From the IMG/VR virus record IMGVR_UViG_2675903606_000017, positions 1 through 4,907 of that record: a stretch of DNA of 4,907 bases. One strand, 5' to 3'. This stretch comes from a virus. Its lineage: Duplodnaviria; Heunggongvirae; Uroviricota; Caudoviricetes. The position numbers and the translations under genes were made by a program. Under the pieces are notes generated by a model that made no database searches, was not told where the DNA came from, and saw only the letters and a program-made list of their open reading frames with translations. Numbering within the stretch: the stretch's first letter is position 1; every line of letters begins with the position of its first letter. Shown in pieces: positions 1 to 4,907 of the stretch.

Positions 1-342
1 CTGCATTACCGGCTGCACTTTCTGCCGTCTTTCTTGACAATTCAGCTTCTGCTGCACTTTGTGATGACTCACTGGCTTTTTGAGCGGCCGCAGAAGCCGA
101 GGACGAGGACGCATCCTCTGACTTCTTTGCTGAGGCTGCACTTTCTGCCGCCTGCCGGGCTGACTCCGATGCCTCCCCTGCTGAAGTGTCAGCATTTGCC
201 GCGCTCGCTTCCGCCTGACTGACTGATATGCCGGCATTCCTCGCGGACGTCTCTGCTTCTCCGGCATTCTTCTTCGCCTCCTCTGCGTGACGCGCCACCT
301 CTTCCACCATCAGTTCAAAACGACGCAGTGCCTCCGGACGGA
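1..342 (-). pseudogene. Internal fragment of a lambdoid-type side tail fibre protein (Stf-like); the ORF continues past the left edge of the window and its 5' part is missing, apparently cut off by the Mu-like insertion at about 343
   Basis: Hand translation of the minus strand from 358 down to 1 gives one open frame with no stop: DSPGYIRPEALRRFELMVEEVARHAEEAKKNAGEAETSARNAGISVSQAEASAANADTSAGEASESARQAAESAASAKKSEDASSSSASAAAQKASESSQSAAEAELSRKTAESAAGNA. The RPEALRRFELMVEEVAR block followed by an Ala/Ser/Glu/Lys-rich repetitive shaft matches, from memory, the conserved N-terminal region of phage lambda Stf-type side tail fibres (lambda has ...DDARPEVLRRLELMVEEVARNA...). The conserved block is preceded in frame by unrelated residues and then a stop about 19 codons upstream (around 398-400). 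The only in-frame ATG (309-311) falls inside the conserved block (the M of ELMVEE). The ORF is absent from the six-frame track, presumably because it has no stop inside the window. Confidence 0.65.
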
Positions 343-357
343 TGTAACCAGGTGAAT

Positions 358-371
358 CATTTGATACCGAC
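358..371 (+). repeat. Putative terminal transposase-binding site L1 (CATTTGATACCGAC)
   Basis: TTTGATACCGAC at 360-371 is repeated exactly at 455-466 and as TTTGATACTGC at 507-517. Extended, L1 (358-371, CATTTGATACCGAC) matches the third copy (505-518, CATTTGATACTGCT) at 12 of 14 positions. The three copies start about 16, 111 and 163 bp from the proposed end, similar to the L1/L2/L3 arrangement I recall for Mu attL. Confidence 0.45.
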
Positions 372-452
372 AAGGGTTTTAGTGAAAGGAGGTGAAATCA
401 CCTGTAAGATGCTGAAATAAAACAGGTGATGTATACTTCGGACGGAAAACTC

Positions 453-466
453 TTTTTGATACCGAC
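453..466 (+). repeat. Putative terminal transposase-binding site L2 (TTTTTGATACCGAC)
   Basis: Exact 12-bp repeat of the L1 core (TTTGATACCGAC, 455-466), same orientation. Confidence 0.45.
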
Positions 467-504
467 TGCTCAACAAATAGTCAAAAGATCAAAAAACGGC
501 GACA

Positions 505-518
505 CATTTGATACTGCT
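505..518 (+). repeat. Putative terminal transposase-binding site L3 (CATTTGATACTGCT)
   Basis: 12 of 14 match to the L1 copy at 358-371, same orientation, about 40 bp downstream of L2. Confidence 0.4.
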
Positions 519-698
519 AATTTACCCTTAAAATCTTCTTCAAAACATCTTCAAACTGCCAAAATGCTCACATAATCGATCTAACTATAATCAGTATGAT
601 AATCATCATGAATTACTATTCAATAGCGTGATTATCTTGGGATGAGTCATATGATCTCTATATGTATTTACAGCACCACCTCATGATAGCGATGGCGC

Positions 699-1310
699 TT
701 AACCAACAACATTTTTCTTTACTGTCACTGCCCCTGATTCCTGGGTGGCGTTATTGCTCGAGTTGTACTTCTCAATAACGCGCAAAATCTCTTTGTCTGT
801 TTCTTCACTTCCCGCCATTCCTATCTTTATTGCATTTTTTAGTACGGGACGTAATGGCAAGGCATCAATGATGCTTTCTACCGCATCCTGGCTGATTGTA
901 GATGTATTCATTGCTGCCAGCCTGACAAGGTTGTTAGTACCTTCTCGCCTGATGAATGTAAGGATTAATTGCTTCTCTTGGGGGCTTAGAGAGCTAAGCG
1001 CCTGATCAATACCCGAACCCGAATCGCAATTTTTTTCGATTTTTCCGCATTCATCTTCGTTCTTGCCTGTGGCCAACCATTCGAGTGAACAATTACAGGC
1101 TTTAGCTATTAAGGCCAGTTTATCCAAAGGAGGGAAGTTTTTCCCCTTCCTGTAATTTCTTACTGTGGCTTCAGATAGTCCACAAAGGGTCGCCAGTTCG
1201 ACGTTTGTCATGTTTCCCATAGCCATAGCTAAGCGTTCTGAAAATCGGTTTATTCCTTCCATATCAATAAACCGTTCCGCACTGGATACGGTTTTTTCTG
1301 CCTTATCCAT
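699..1310 (-). CDS. Prophage repressor with an XRE/Cro-CI-type helix-turn-helix (functional analogue of Mu c)
   Basis: 203-aa ORF divergent from ner-A-B, in the position of Mu c. Residues about 30-85 (MTNVELATLCGLSEATVRNYRKGKNFPPLDKLALIAKACNCSLEWLATG) look like a typical XRE-family HTH. Good Shine-Dalgarno on the minus strand (AGGGGG, 4 nt, ATG at 1310). No obvious LexA-like Ser/Lys autocleavage motif. The C-terminal tail (...ESGAVTVKKNVVG) loosely resembles the Mu repressor C-terminus as I recall it. Confidence 0.75.
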   Translation of the reverse strand: MDKAEKTVSSAERFIDMEGINRFSERLAMAMGNMTNVELATLCGLSEATVRNYRKGKNFPPLDKLALIAKACNCSLEWLATGKNEDECGKIEKNCDSGSGIDQALSSLSPQEKQLILTFIRREGTNNLVRLAAMNTSTISQDAVESIIDALPLRPVLKNAIKIGMAGSEETDKEILRVIEKYNSSNNATQESGAVTVKKNVVG

Positions 1311-1466
1311 ATAACCCCCTATAAAACAAAGAAATTATCGGCATCGCATTTAATTTCGATATGCTCGCAAAAAACTGTTGATATCGAATTATTTTGCGAT
1401 TATGATTTACCTAAATCGATAACCGGTTTTGATTATCGGTTCAGGTAAACATGAGAGGATCACACA
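1311..1466. promoter_or_regulatory. Divergent operator/promoter region between repressor and ner; likely also the transposition enhancer equivalent
   Basis: AT-rich 156-bp intergenic region between divergent genes. The pentamer TATCG or its complement CGATA occurs five times (1336-1340, 1357-1361, 1382-1386, 1417-1421, 1434-1438). These include an inverted repeat CGATAA(1417-1422)-N10-TTATCG(1433-1438) centred on the palindrome ACCGGT (1422-1427). The region lies about 970-1120 bp from the proposed left end, comparable to the Mu operator/enhancer position. Confidence 0.5.
1378..1406 (+). promoter_or_regulatory. Candidate early promoter (Pe-like) for ner-A-B: -35 TTGATA (1378-1383), 17-bp spacer, -10 TATGAT (1401-1406)
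   Basis: Near-consensus sigma70 hexamers with the optimal 17-bp spacer, about 60 bp upstream of the ner start. Predicted transcription start near 1413, just upstream of the CGATAA-N10-TTATCG inverted repeat. Confidence 0.5.
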
Positions 1467-1733
1467 ATGAGGGTATCCAGACAAGCATCGAATAATTTGT
1501 TTGTTCGAGAGGGGTGTGACTGGTCTGCTAAAGCGGTATATGCAGCCCTTGAAAACAAAGGCACAGACCTCCCTGAACTGGAAAGGGAGTTAGGATTAAA
1601 AAGCGGATCAATGCGCAATGTGTTTTACCGCCAGTGCCGTAAATACGAAGCCGCCATCGCCGAAAAAATAGGGGTTGAACCTGCTGTAATCTGGCCCAGC
1701 AGATACCAGGTGGACGCCAGAGAAGTGGCTTGA
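1467..1733 (+). CDS. ner: Ner-like DNA-binding protein (Mu Ner / Nlp family)
   Basis: 88-aa ORF immediately upstream of the transposase gene. Residues DW...LS...PEVIWPSRYQ match Mu Ner as recalled (DWHRADVIAGL...ETKPEVIWPSRYQ); this window has DWSAKAVYAAL...GVEPAVIWPSRYQ. Shine-Dalgarno GAGAGGA about 8 nt upstream of the ATG at 1467. The N-terminus is about 10 residues longer than Mu Ner, so the true start could differ. Confidence 0.85.
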   Translation: MRVSRQASNNLFVREGCDWSAKAVYAALENKGTDLPELERELGLKSGSMRNVFYRQCRKYEAAIAEKIGVEPAVIWPSRYQVDAREVA

Positions 1734-1743
1734 TGGGGGATGT

Positions 1744-3834
1744 ATGTGGGTAACAGCAAAAGAATGTGTTGGTCTTCCTGATTTACCAATGATGGAACAT
1801 AACATTCGCCATCGACTCACAAAAGCAGCTGCGGGAAATGCAGCCATGTTACGCAAACGTAAGGGGACAAAAGCAATCGAATTTAATATCGATTGTTTGC
1901 CTTCTGGCGCGCAACAAGTATTGCGTGAACGTTATGCCCTTCAACTGATGACGCAAAAAGCTGATGAATCACCGGCTCCGGTGGTGACAAAGGCCAGACG
2001 CTCATCTGCCGTGGTTGATGCGGTGGAGGCATATCGCGGATCACCACAACTGATGCTCGAACGCCTCAATGCCCTGACTGAAAACCAGCGCCAGGTGGCT
2101 GATGCACGAATCGCGATCGTCAGCGAAGTTCTGAAAGTCGCGCAACAACCTGGTTTCAGCTGTGCGAAGGCTATCCGGTTTATCGTTGACAACCTGGCAC
2201 GTTCGCAACTGGACGAGCGCATTGTGGCAATGGTTGAGACGGCGAACGCCAAAAAGGGAAACAGCCGTGCGTTGAGTGAAATCACGCTGAAACGCTGGAT
2301 TGCAGCCTTTAACAAGGCGCAGAACGCCGCTGAACGCCTGCTTTTGCTGGCACCTGGTAAGCGCCAGGAAATAAAAGCCGAAGATATTAACTGGCTGCCC
2401 GAATTTCTGGCGCAGTATCGCCAGTCAAACGGCCGACCAATGACCGAGGCTTACGAGGATTTTGTCGCTGAATGGCAGCACCGGCACGCTGATGAGCCTT
2501 ATATGCTCGATATCATGCCGTCTTATGACACCATTCGCCGCGCAATGAAGAAACTGCCGGAAGTGGTGAAACAAAAAGGCCGGGTGACCGGCAGTGAATA
2601 CCGCCAGCTTGAGGGATTCACGCGCCGCGACTGGTCCAGAATGCCGGTGAATTATGTCTGGATTGGTGACGGTCACGGCATGAAGCTGAAATGCGCACAC
2701 CCGGTTCACGGTCGGCCATTTGCACCGGAAGTGACCTTTGTTATCGACGGTGGCACGCGCTTTGTGGTGGGCTGGAGCCTTGACCTGGCTGAAAATGTTT
2801 TCGCCGTAGCCGGTGCCATACAGCACGGCATTCGCCATCACGGCAAACCGTTTCTGTATTACTCGGATAACGGCTCCGGGGAAACCGCCGACATCCTGGA
2901 TAAGGAGGTTGTGGGGATACTGCCGCGACTGGGGATTAATCACCCGACCGGGATTGCCGGTAATCCGCAGGGACGAGGCATTATCGAACGGCTTAACCGC
3001 ACATTACCGATGCGCATAGCCCGTAAATACCGCACCTATTTCGGGAAAGGTGCAGATCGCGAGACGTTACGCAAAACCAACCGCGATTTACGCTCGGCAT
3101 TTACTGCCCTGCAACAGGGCAAACGGCTGAACGCCCGGCAGCAGTCAGCGATGCGTGATTTACCGTCCTGGTCTGAACTGATTGATGCCATTCGTGACGG
3201 TGTTGAGTGGTACAACAACCGGCCGCACGATGAATTACCGGTGAAGCCGAACGGCAAGCATTACAGCCCGGCGGAGTTCAGAAAAAAACGCCTGGCGGAA
3301 GAGGACACGGAAATTGAATGGCTGTCCGATGTTGAGCTGCGGGATATGTTCCGGCCGATGGTGGAACGCCCTGTAAGACGCTGTGAAATACGCTGGCTGA
3401 ATAATATTTACTACGCGCCCGAGCTGCGTGACGAGCATGGTCGTAAGGTGCTTATCAGCTATGACATTCATGATGCCGAACGAATTACCGTACGTCGCCT
3501 GGATGGCAGCGTGATTTGCGAGGCGGTATGGGACGGCAATAAACGCGAAGCCTTCCCGATCAGCGCGGAATACCACAAACAGCAGCAGCGCCTTAAAGGC
3601 ATGCGTAAACGCGCAGAGGAAAAAATCCGTGATGCCGAGGATGAGATTGTCAACGTGCTGGAGCACAAGCCACAGGAGCCGTGGCTGGAAAATATATACC
3701 GCCCTGTGGGTAATACGGTGATCGTTCAGCAACCGGTCGCTGACGATGAACCTGATGAAGAATACGAGCGTAATTTCCAGCGGGGATTGCAGCTGCTTGA
3801 AGCGAAATTAAAAGAAAATGACCCTCTGGCCTGA
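1744..3834 (+). CDS. A: MuA-like DDE transposase
   Basis: 696-aa ORF. The N-terminus (WVTAKECVGLPDLP...KGTKAIEFNIDCLP) parallels the Mu A enhancer-binding domain (WVSPKECANLPGLP...KGGKAIEYNANSLP). Candidate catalytic DDE residues sit in VWIGDGHG, YYSDNGSG and GIIERLNRTL. The C-terminus (RPVGNT...DEEYERNFQRGLQLLE) resembles the Mu A C-terminal MuB/ClpX-interaction region. Shine-Dalgarno GGGGGA upstream; the start lies 10 nt after the ner stop. Confidence 0.95.
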   Translation: MWVTAKECVGLPDLPMMEHNIRHRLTKAAAGNAAMLRKRKGTKAIEFNIDCLPSGAQQVLRERYALQLMTQKADESPAPVVTKARRSSAVVDAVEAYRGSPQLMLERLNALTENQRQVADARIAIVSEVLKVAQQPGFSCAKAIRFIVDNLARSQLDERIVAMVETANAKKGNSRALSEITLKRWIAAFNKAQNAAERLLLLAPGKRQEIKAEDINWLPEFLAQYRQSNGRPMTEAYEDFVAEWQHRHADEPYMLDIMPSYDTIRRAMKKLPEVVKQKGRVTGSEYRQLEGFTRRDWSRMPVNYVWIGDGHGMKLKCAHPVHGRPFAPEVTFVIDGGTRFVVGWSLDLAENVFAVAGAIQHGIRHHGKPFLYYSDNGSGETADILDKEVVGILPRLGINHPTGIAGNPQGRGIIERLNRTLPMRIARKYRTYFGKGADRETLRKTNRDLRSAFTALQQGKRLNARQQSAMRDLPSWSELIDAIRDGVEWYNNRPHDELPVKPNGKHYSPAEFRKKRLAEEDTEIEWLSDVELRDMFRPMVERPVRRCEIRWLNNIYYAPELRDEHGRKVLISYDIHDAERITVRRLDGSVICEAVWDGNKREAFPISAEYHKQQQRLKGMRKRAEEKIRDAEDEIVNVLEHKPQEPWLENIYRPVGNTVIVQQPVADDEPDEEYERNFQRGLQLLEAKLKENDPLA

Positions 3835-3841
3835 AATAAAA

Positions 3842-3871
3842 AAATAACCCGAGCGGCGACTCAGGTTATTT
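3842..3871 (+). terminator. Stem-loop between the A and B genes; possible partial terminator, attenuator or RNA-stability element
   Basis: AAATAACCCGAG (3842-3853) pairs with CTCAGGTTATTT (3860-3871) at 11 of 12 positions (one C/A mismatch), with loop CGGCGA. An A-rich run lies 5' and the 3' arm is T-rich, followed by GATT. The GC core is short (CCCGAG/CTCAGG), so termination would be weak at best. Confidence 0.35.
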
Positions 3872-3909
3872 GATTAAACAAAGGAACTACACAAACGCGA
3901 GGTAATAAT

Positions 3910-4827
3910 ATGACCGATATAAACGATGTAATCAAGACCATTGATGAACTTATTGATGGCGGCGTGCTGACGCAGTATGCCATCGCCAGAGAGGCGGGAA
4001 TTTCCGACGGCACATTATCGGCTTTCCGCAAGGGGAAATATAAAGGCGATAACGCCGCTGTGGCTGCTTCCCTGCGCTCCTGGTATGAGAACTGGAATAA
4101 ACAAAGCGCACTGCCGGAACCGCCGCAGTTTGTGGAAACTCAGACAGTCCAGGAGCTGCGCGCACTGTTTCAGGCGGTTCGCCTGATGGGCTGTATTAAC
4201 GTTATTGTGGGCGTACCGGGTGTGGGTAAAACGGCCACTGCCCGTAATTACTGCCAGGAGCAACCAAACACCTGGATGATCACCCTGTCACCCGCGCACT
4301 CCAGCGTCACGGAGTGTCTGCTGGAGCTGGCCGATGCGCTGGGGATTGATTACACCCGCGCGAACAAAGGGGCATTATCCCGCGCCATCCGCCGTCGCCT
4401 GATGGGAACGCGTGGACTGGTGATTGTGGATGAGGCGGATCATCTTGGTATTGACGGTCTGGAGCAACTCCGGGCAATTCAGGACGCCACGGGGATCGGG
4501 ATGGTGCTTATTGGTAACCCGCGCGGATTGTTTAAAGGTGGACGCCGCGCCTTTGATGATTTATCGCGCCTGTTCAGCCGTCTTGCCCGTACAAAACAAC
4601 TTCGCAAGGCCAAAAAGGCGGATGTGCTGGCCATTGCCAGGGCATGGGGTATCAGTGGTGAGGCCGAGCTGGCTGTCATGCAGGCTATCGCTGAAAAGCC
4701 GGGAGCGTTACGCGTTCTGACACATACGCTTAACCAGGCGTGGCTCACCGCCAGCGGTGAAGGCGCGGCGCTGACAGAAAAACATATTAATGCGGCCTTT
4801 GGTAATGCTGCCAACTTACTGATTTAG
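3910..4827 (+). CDS. B: MuB-like AAA+ ATPase (transposition target-DNA activator)
   Basis: 305-aa ORF directly downstream of the transposase gene. Walker A GVPGVGKT and Walker B LVIVDEADHL are present. Strong similarity to Mu B as recalled (PEPPQFVETQTV here versus PEPPRFVETQTV; KPGALRVL versus KPGALRIL). Shine-Dalgarno GAGGT about 8 nt upstream of the ATG. Confidence 0.93.
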   Translation: MTDINDVIKTIDELIDGGVLTQYAIAREAGISDGTLSAFRKGKYKGDNAAVAASLRSWYENWNKQSALPEPPQFVETQTVQELRALFQAVRLMGCINVIVGVPGVGKTATARNYCQEQPNTWMITLSPAHSSVTECLLELADALGIDYTRANKGALSRAIRRRLMGTRGLVIVDEADHLGIDGLEQLRAIQDATGIGMVLIGNPRGLFKGGRRAFDDLSRLFSRLARTKQLRKAKKADVLAIARAWGISGEAELAVMQAIAEKPGALRVLTHTLNQAWLTASGEGAALTEKHINAAFGNAANLLI

Positions 4828-4907
4828 TGTATGATGGTGATTTTAAGGTGCTTGCGTGGCTTCCATTTCCATCAGATGTCCTTCCTGCTCCGCTACTGAA
4901 GGCGTGG

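Follow-up and report, generated by a model that had tools for sequence, protein, structure and literature searches.

In phage Mu, the textbook case, the repressor and the transposase carry the same DNA-binding domain and compete for a single operator/enhancer. The left end of a Mu-like prophage in the virus record IMGVR_UViG_2675903606_000017 (Caudoviricetes; positions 1 to 4,907, the whole 4,907-nt stretch being called the window below) raises the question of what kind of repressor such an element uses when the two proteins do not have this domain in common. A first-pass annotation of the leftward gene at 699-1310 had proposed an XRE-type repressor unrelated to the transposase N-terminus. Our analysis of sequences and predicted structures suggests, with a probability of roughly 0.7, that this gene encodes the immunity repressor of the prophage, that the protein joins an XRE head to the body and tail of the Mu repressor (Mu c), and that its control is Mu-like and non-SOS.

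Domain architecture of the repressor

The head of the repressor belongs to the XRE/Cro-CI class. In a Pfam scan, residues 25-85 matched PF07022 (Phage_CI_repr; E 1.6e-9, 38.4 bits with a cutoff of 22) and PF01381 (HTH_3; E 4.4e-9, 36.7 bits with a cutoff of 23), the latter being one of the two N-terminal families that the first-pass annotation had expected for this 203-residue protein. An AlphaFold model built on 23 homologues contains five helices in the head (residues 23-31, 36-43, 47-55, 62-71, and 76-81), with a predicted local distance difference test (pLDDT) score of about 90. Beyond the head, residues 87-96 form a disordered linker, the C-terminal half is entirely helical, and residues 189-203 are a disordered tail. 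In a Foldseek search of the PDB, the head superposed on 434 Cro (2cro) with a target template modelling (TM) score of 0.88, a root-mean-square deviation (rmsd) of 1.4 Å, and 33% identity, and on P22 c2 (3jxb) with a TM score of 0.89-0.91 and an rmsd of 0.9 Å. The family matches, the five-helix model, and the two superpositions together bear out the proposed XRE-type helix-turn-helix. Residues 20-85 share the fold of 434 Cro, 434 repressor, and P22 c2, but the identity is only 20-33%, and the partner domains differ.

This head is distinct from the Mu type. Mu c has a winged-helix head paralogous to the I-alpha domain of MuA (PF02316, E 5e-54), whereas PF02316 had no match in the window repressor in the Pfam scan. 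Neither BLASTP nor profile-profile comparison detected significant similarity between the repressor head and the transposase N-terminus, in agreement with the earlier statement that the two are unlike, and BLASTP of the whole repressor against Mu c was not significant (E 2.8).

The autopeptidase domain Peptidase_S24 (PF00717) is beta-rich, and the Pfam scan of the repressor gave no match to it even at E≤1. The missing match and the all-helical C-terminal half place the repressor outside the autocleaving class of LexA and lambda CI, and the earlier observation that it lacks a LexA-like autocleavage region therefore holds.

Relationship of the C-terminal domain to Mu c

The C-terminal domain of the repressor is homologous to that of Mu c. 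Searching 1.84 billion representative proteins with a profile built from 16 homologues over residues 97-203 yielded only 41 relatives. Among 33 sequences of this family analyzed with Pfam (the query and 32 relatives), 19 carry an HTH_3 head and three (P0071, P0086, and P0094; best E 2e-14) carry a PF02316 head. P0071, whose C-terminal domain matched at E 7.5e-19, is the repressor of a Mu-like prophage in which the transposase N-terminus is 55% identical to the head of its own repressor, which is the classic Mu arrangement. P0094 aligned with Mu c over residues 7-191 (E 7e-12), and its central segment LSEDEKNIIVNFIQREGLNSLLRL plainly corresponds to LSPQEKQLILTFIRREGTNNLVRL of the window repressor.

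The repressors of Sp18, vB_YpM_5, and a Salmonella relative (P0042), which have XRE-type heads and a shorter C-terminal domain, provide a second connection. Comparison by hhalign of the window-type and Sp18-type domains gave a probability of 94-96% (E 1.3e-7 to 3.6e-9), and that of the Sp18-type domain and the Mu c family gave 66-85% (E 6.6e-6 to 5.5e-5). The real comparisons scored 24.7-37.8, and thirty column-shuffled controls scored 8.5-17.7 (E≥0.03). The direct comparison of the window-type domain with Mu c reached E 0.002 over 76 columns. In addition, residues 101-130 of the window repressor and residues 42-132 of Mu c fall in the same region of the Pfam YfeC-like model, and BLASTP weakly aligned the last 65 residues of the repressor, in colinear order, with the C-terminus of Mu c. 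Relative to Mu c, the window-type domain contains an extra segment of about 20 residues (IIDALPLRPVLKNAIKIG...).

These data have to be weighed against the possibility that the protein is an ordinary XRE repressor whose C-terminal half is a lineage-specific helical dimerization domain unrelated to Mu c, with a similarity and a basic tail that reflect convergence or low-information helical matches, and with another route of induction, such as an antirepressor. The BLASTP result given above and a first profile-profile test against Mu c, which reached only E 0.04, are what this possibility would predict. Pfam and NCBIfam contain no family covering the domain, NCBIfam has none for the window repressor, the Sp18 repressor, or Mu c, and Foldseek found no match for the model. 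BLASTP of the window, vB_YpM_5, and P0042 repressors against Mu c gave marginal local matches only, so that profiles and intermediates were needed; a search with the Sp18 C-terminal domain returned only eight mostly fragmentary proteins, whose inclusion left the link to Mu c no stronger. However, the same domain is fused to Mu-type heads in repressors of Mu-like prophages, P0094 ties both halves to Mu c in a single alignment, and the Sp18-type intermediate matches both sides well above the shuffled controls. Moreover, the alignments run colinearly along the entire domain, and both groups have the tail motif. An unrelated C-terminal half is therefore quite unlikely, and the repressor is very probably a mosaic with an XRE head on a Mu c body. 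The earlier contrast with Mu-type repressors accordingly stands for the DNA-binding head and has to be withdrawn for the C-terminal domain and the tail.

The only profile-profile match between the repressor and transposase families links DAVESIIDALPL (repressor residues 142-153, window 852-887) to KAIEFNIDCLPS (transposase residues 43-54, window 1870-1905). It has an E value of 0.056 over 12 columns and falls in the segment of the C-terminal domain that is absent from Mu c. This resemblance is probably due to chance.

Candidate operators and the early promoter

Repeat finding revealed inverted copies of 18-20 nt at 1343-1362 and 1381-1400 and a related copy at 1022-1040. The derived pattern, ATCGMA-N6-TKCGAT, occurs perfectly at 1343 (O1), 1383 (O2), and 1023 (O3) and with one mismatch at 1876, giving four sites where 0.07 are expected; the pattern was derived from O1 and O2, and only the sites at 1023 and 1876 count as tests. 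We consider O1-O3 candidate operators that may be bound by dimers of the repressor head. P22 c2 uses 18-bp palindromic operators, which have the same length. The palindrome at 1876-1893 (ATCGAATTTAATATCGAT) was rejected as an operator: it is identical in another E. coli prophage with a different head (L006) and encodes the conserved AIEFNID of the transposase, and it is probably a coding coincidence.

The promoter candidate that encloses O2 is the sole plus-strand promoter-like site in a scan of 340-1800, and a related palindrome is located between the -35 and -10 elements in every relative examined. An O3-like site with two mismatches lies at the same offset (-290 from the ATG) in three prophages with related heads (L004, L008, and L011), and none was found at this offset in L006, L009, and L010, whose heads differ. 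In the four compared O3 sites, wobble positions preserve the CG of both half-sites, even as the encoded residues change. Inspection by eye of the minus strand of 1311-1466 revealed no convincing promoter for the repressor gene, and the promoter scan detected none.

On the minus strand, 1371-1383 (TATCAACAGTTTT) fits the consensus for integration host factor (IHF), WATCAANNNNTTR, except at the last position. This consensus match lies between O1 and O2 and overlaps the -35 element; Mu has an IHF site between its O1 and O2.

The inverted repeat between the -10 element and ner (arms TTTACCTAAATCGATAA and TTATCGGTTCAGGTAAA) is conserved wherever Ner is conserved. In the Salmonella prophage L011, both outer arms are altered in a compensatory way (TTTATCTAAA and TTTAGATAAA). 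Its predicted RNA fold has an energy of -20 kcal/mol (z -3.0). The repeat could be a Ner operator, an I-alpha site, or a hairpin in the 5' untranslated region (5'-UTR).

The transposase N-terminus and the immunity cassette

The transposase retains a Mu-like N-terminus, as the first-pass annotation had stated. PF02316 (HTH_Tnp_Mu_1) matched it with 24.7 bits (cutoff 23.3), BLASTP aligned the protein with MuA from residue 1, and a profile of seven N-termini of the transposase family matched the I-alpha domain of MuA (PDB 1tns) at E 2.6e-7 and the DNA-binding domain of Mu c (1g4d) at E 0.026. Against the Mu c family profile, the same seven-sequence profile gave a probability of 97% and E 1e-11. 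The profile check proposed earlier for a Mu-type enhancer-binding domain thus found both the MuA I-alpha domain and the Mu c head.

Comparison with L006 separates this domain from the repressor head. The DNA of the two prophages is 82-100% identical up to about 950 and from about 1400 onward, and only 36-62% identical in between; the divergent stretch spans the repressor head, the linker, the first C-terminal helix, and O1-O3. At the protein level, residues 1-90 of the repressor are 46% identical, Ner is 99% identical, and residues 1-75 of the transposase are 97% identical. The head and the palindromes at 1343, 1383, and 1023 thus form a swappable immunity cassette, while I-alpha and Ner stay at 97-99%. 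In the comparison with Sp18, the divergent block extends from about 500 to about 1920 and ends near transposase residue 60; residues 1-60 carry most of the divergence of the transposase, and the proteins are about 99% identical thereafter. This mirrors the pattern published for Mu and D108, as far as it is represented by a reference cited in PMC3820752.

Across eight comparisons, the identities of I-alpha and Ner were 97/99, 76/82, 76/82, 63/78, 47/59, 49/61, 43/44, and 17/23%. I-alpha identity follows Ner identity and not that of the repressor head, suggesting that I-alpha is a specificity module uncoupled from the head. Physical linkage of ner and the 5' end of A can also explain this co-variation.

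A different view is that the repressor and the transposase still compete, with I-alpha enhancer sites interleaved with or overlapping O1-O2, so that two folds would meet on overlapping DNA and immunity would block transpososome assembly. The operator region (1311-1466) is 970-1120 bp from the left end (343), which agrees with the position of the operator/enhancer in Mu. The I-alpha domain is retained and conserved, and relative to Sp18 and vB_YpM_5, it diverges along with the whole immunity region, as between Mu and D108. In L006, however, the head and the O1/O2 region have been replaced beside an almost unchanged I-alpha, and I-alpha tracks Ner rather than the head in eight of eight comparisons, an observation that the linkage of ner and the 5' end of A could also produce. 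We consider competition on overlapping DNA unlikely. Because the head and operators change while I-alpha remains 97% identical in L006, the repressor and the transposase probably read different sites. The different recognition modes proposed in the first-pass annotation are supported indirectly by this replacement, with linkage remaining as the alternative.

The start of the transposase is annotated differently elsewhere. RefSeq starts the transposase of an intact copy (L002 4451-6493, corresponding to window 1792-3834) at Met17, giving 680 residues; this start drops the conserved MWVTAKECVGLPDLP, the beginning of I-alpha and the aligned counterpart of MuA residues 3-17. A GGGGGA Shine-Dalgarno sequence lies 3 nt upstream of the ATG at 1744. 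In a Mu-type relative (L012 4509-4608), the transposase is also called too late (VFRQLQGK...), and the extended frame gives MTLSWITIDNLASLPNIG..., which is the missing winged-helix N-terminus of the L012 transposase.

The C-terminal tail and induction

The tail of the repressor carries a motif shared across the superfamily. Among 72 members of the C-terminal superfamily with either head type, 69 have a small C-terminal residue and, 2-5 positions from the end, a basic residue before it; the motif reads VKKAV in Mu c, ESKAG in Sp18, KNKVG and HKKSAS in other relatives, and VKKNVVG in the window. The 10-15 residues before this motif are variable and predicted to be disordered. In Mu c, the C-terminal ClpX determinant is reported to be conformationally masked, with its exposure leading to degradation and derepression, as summarized in PMC10584840 (citing Laachouch 1996 and Defenbaugh & Nakai 2003) and PMC3983244. 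Given the homology of the C-terminal domain and tail with their Mu c counterparts, the earlier suggestion that the tail may be a ClpXP recognition element, made by analogy, is now better founded as one of homology, and the tail is a candidate determinant.

The S24 domain is absent from the repressor, and non-SOS induction, without RecA-stimulated self-cleavage, is therefore the best prediction from its domain content. In a survey of Mu-like phages, mitomycin inducibility was linked to an S24 domain in the repressor (PMC8541194), and Sp18 was reported not to be induced by mitomycin C (PMC2669165). A gene for an ImmA-like partner metalloprotease was not found near the repressor, which is flanked by a 49-codon open reading frame (ORF) on one side and by ner-A-B on the other.

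The transposase of the window ends in KLKENDPLA (window 3796-3834) and lacks a basic RRKKAI sequence, the C-terminus through which ClpX recognizes MuA. Accordingly, if ClpX remodels the transpososome of this element, another determinant must be involved.

Proposed control of lysogeny

The analysis established the domain identities, the C-terminal homology, the motif occurrences, and the cassette boundaries; beside these, we infer operator function, oligomerization, ClpXP sensitivity, and the relationship to the enhancer in the following scheme. Dimers of the head would bind the 18-bp palindromes. O2 spans the early promoter spacer, with O1 40 bp upstream, and occupancy of these sites would turn off ner, A, and B. 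O3 is located 320 bp away, within the repressor gene, and oligomers assembled via the Mu-type C-terminal domain could bridge to it. Induction would most likely occur as in Mu, when the C-terminal tail is exposed to ClpXP. Because the specificity of I-alpha does not appear to be tied to the repressor head, any interference of the repressor with enhancer function would be steric or act through DNA architecture, rather than through shared site recognition.

Several observations weigh against this scheme. With the site at 1876 attributed to coding, O3 is the only independent perfect match to the operator pattern. The direct profile match to Mu c is weak, so that the case is built on intermediates and mosaics, and the model of the C-terminal domain has moderate confidence (pLDDT about 70, predicted TM score 0.30-0.35) and found no Foldseek match in BFVD at E≤0.001. 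The tail has two more residues than the VKKAV of Mu c, and recognition of the Mu c tail by ClpX is context dependent, so that degradation is not to be assumed. Finally, the Sp18 repressor is a different allele (26% identity), and the mitomycin result transfers by architecture only.

A broader proposal, which we offer tentatively, is that the Mu c C-terminal domain is a portable non-SOS sensor and oligomerization module that has been joined to at least two unrelated DNA-binding folds in transposable phages of Enterobacterales. In the XRE-headed versions, the shared operator-enhancer competition would have been lost, immunity would be transcriptional only, and the site recognized by I-alpha would be a separate one, co-segregating with Ner (about 1400-1920).

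Comparison with known repressors

Mu c (Rep, 196 aa) and its relatives in D108 and SfMu are, like the window repressor, encoded by a left-end gene divergent from ner-A-B. Mu c and the window repressor also have in common a helical C-terminal domain, a basic C-terminal tail, and the absence of an S24 domain. In Mu, the paralogue of I-alpha is the repressor head and both read the operator/enhancer, whereas the window repressor has no I-alpha paralogue. The MuA I-alpha domain is homologous to residues 1-60 of the window transposase and is swappable between sister phages, as in the Mu and D108 case known through the reference cited in PMC3820752.

The closest precedents are the repressors of Sp18 (ECs_4943) and vB_YpM_5, which combine an XRE/CI-type head with a Mu c-type C-terminal domain in a Mu-like phage. 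The transposase bodies of Sp18 and vB_YpM_5 are about 99% and 90% identical to that of the window, respectively. In contrast, the heads are only 26-36% identical, the C-terminal domains are shorter and closer to Mu c, and Ner and I-alpha also differ. The Sp18 operators differ as well, with a CCAAAAATACC inverted repeat. The lambda CI-like repressors of Shewanella MuM16-1 and BcepMu likewise place an XRE-type helix-turn-helix head in a transposable phage (PMC8541194). Their C-terminal S24 autopeptidase domain, which is correlated with mitomycin C induction (PMC8541194), is replaced in the window repressor by an all-helical domain without S24.

XRE-type repressors in Mu-like phages are thus already documented (PMC8541194), and together with Sp18 and vB_YpM_5 these precedents make the arrangement less rare than the first-pass annotation implied. 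The papers on Sp18, SfMu, and the Yersinia phages call the gene simply C-repressor (PMC2669165, PMC4406740, PMC10434027). A literature search, incomplete in its coverage, found no description of the mosaic of XRE head and Mu c body or of an uncoupled cassette. We regard the XRE repressor as ordinary for a Mu-like phage and the hybrid architecture as a modest, unusual variation, not a new kind of system.

The element and its relatives represent natural experiments in which the same transposition machinery and a Mu-type repressor body and tail are combined with an unrelated head. They make it possible to test whether direct repressor-enhancer competition is needed for stable Mu-type lysogeny, where I-alpha binds when there is no repressor paralogue, and whether the C-terminal module generally confers ClpXP-controlled turnover. 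Prophages of this kind are found in Shiga-toxin-producing E. coli and integrate into other prophages, and their predicted behaviour is to be unresponsive to SOS-inducing antibiotics.

Genomic context of the element

The features of the window are listed in Table 1. The order of a leftward repressor gene followed by rightward ner-A-B is the left-end layout of phage Mu. The repressor ATG has an AGGGGG Shine-Dalgarno sequence 4 nt upstream, and a single ORF of 49 aa (426-575) lies between the left end and the repressor gene.

Table 1 Features of the 4,907-nt window and the evidence for each.
Feature	Position	Strand	Evidence or remark
Left end of element	343..520	+	Starts TG; match to copies at other chromosomal sites begins at 342/343
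TTTGATAC repeats (three)	360, 455, 507 (360-371, 455-466, 507-514)		Candidate transposase end-binding sites L1-L3; repeat finding
Repressor gene (c-type, immunity), 203 aa	699..1310	-	ORF; phrog_3037 'transcriptional repressor', E 6.8e-59, full length
Disordered C-terminal tail, residues 189-203, ending VKKNVVG	702..746	-	pLDDT <50; candidate ClpX recognition determinant
All-helical C-terminal domain, residues 97-188	747..1022	-	Homologous to Mu c C-terminal domain; putative oligomerization/regulation role
Candidate operator O3	1023..1040		Perfect pattern match; inside repressor gene, linker codons 91-96
XRE/Cro-CI five-helix DNA-binding domain, residues 20-85	1056..1253	-	PF07022 and PF01381; pLDDT about 90; 434 Cro and P22 c2 match
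Candidate operator O1, ATCGCATTTAATTTCGAT	1343..1360		18-bp palindrome ATCGMA-N6-TKCGAT; in the intergenic part that diverges together with the head
Early promoter candidate for ner-A-B, TTGATA-17-TATGAT	1378..1406	+	10/12 consensus matches
Candidate operator O2, ATCGAATTATTTTGCGAT	1383..1400		Same 18-bp pattern; exactly fills early promoter spacer
17-nt inverted repeat (I3) between promoter -10 and ner	1406..1449		88% complementary; candidate Ner operator and/or 5'-UTR hairpin
ner-like gene, 88 aa	1467..1733	+	PF13693 HTH_35, E 1.7e-20; phrog_769
Mu-type transposase A, 696 aa	1744..3834	+	PF09299, PF02316, phrog_310 E 3.5e-209; full-length alignment with MuA
I-alpha-like winged-helix domain, transposase residues 1-60	1744..1923	+	Profile matches to MuA I-alpha and Mu c head
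MuB-type ATPase gene	3910 onward	+	Third rightward gene, after ner and A

The segment 343-4800 is the left end of a Mu-like prophage with matching copies at many E. coli chromosomal sites, including sites beside flgL, bglJ, betT, and siiEA, inside Shiga toxin (Stx) phages, and, in one case, on a plasmid. Relatives of the element include Sp18 of O157 Sakai and the Yersinia Muvirus vB_YpM_5. The element is not Sp18 itself, as the Sakai record shows a different immunity allele in Sp18. Of 5426 complete E. coli genomes, 36 have the allele of the window.

The match to intact copies ends at 4800. Positions 4801-4907, which we take to be terminal sequence of insertion sequence IS1, lie under an IS1A-family IS1 annotation in HCP4S3_I4, the sole genome whose match continues to 4907. 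The MuB-type protein follows the intact 310-aa version through residue 297 and then continues with eight foreign residues and a stop, and the B gene of this copy was probably damaged by IS1 at 4800/4801.

This damage would fit the view that the prophage is defective and that 699-1310, instead of being the master lysogeny repressor, is either an accessory regulator or a decayed gene. The wider distribution of the gene argues otherwise. Its position and orientation are those of c in Mu, full-length related proteins occur in six enterobacterial genera, and homologous repressors are divergent from ner-A-B at the same position in Mu-like prophages of four genera (Salmonella, E. coli, Morganella, and Providencia). 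Across 34 complete E. coli genomes with many different insertion sites, the immunity region shows 98.8-99.7% identity. An operator-like palindrome lies within the early promoter, and a functional Yersinia phage has the same architecture (PMC10434027). We consider an accessory or decayed gene very unlikely and retain the assignment as the immunity repressor.

Three copies of TTTGATAC(C/T)G are found in the first 175 bp of the element; they recur in Sp18, whose end sequence is the same. These copies are unlike the Mu end-site consensus.

Outside the element, window positions 1-342 match a tail-fibre gene of lambdoid/Stx phages, and 1-345 shares 97-99.7% identity with Stx phage records. The lambdoid/Stx-type tail-fibre gene carries the Mu-like element as an insertion, so that this is a prophage within a prophage, an arrangement that is also annotated in the Stx-phage records LC727881 and LC727895.

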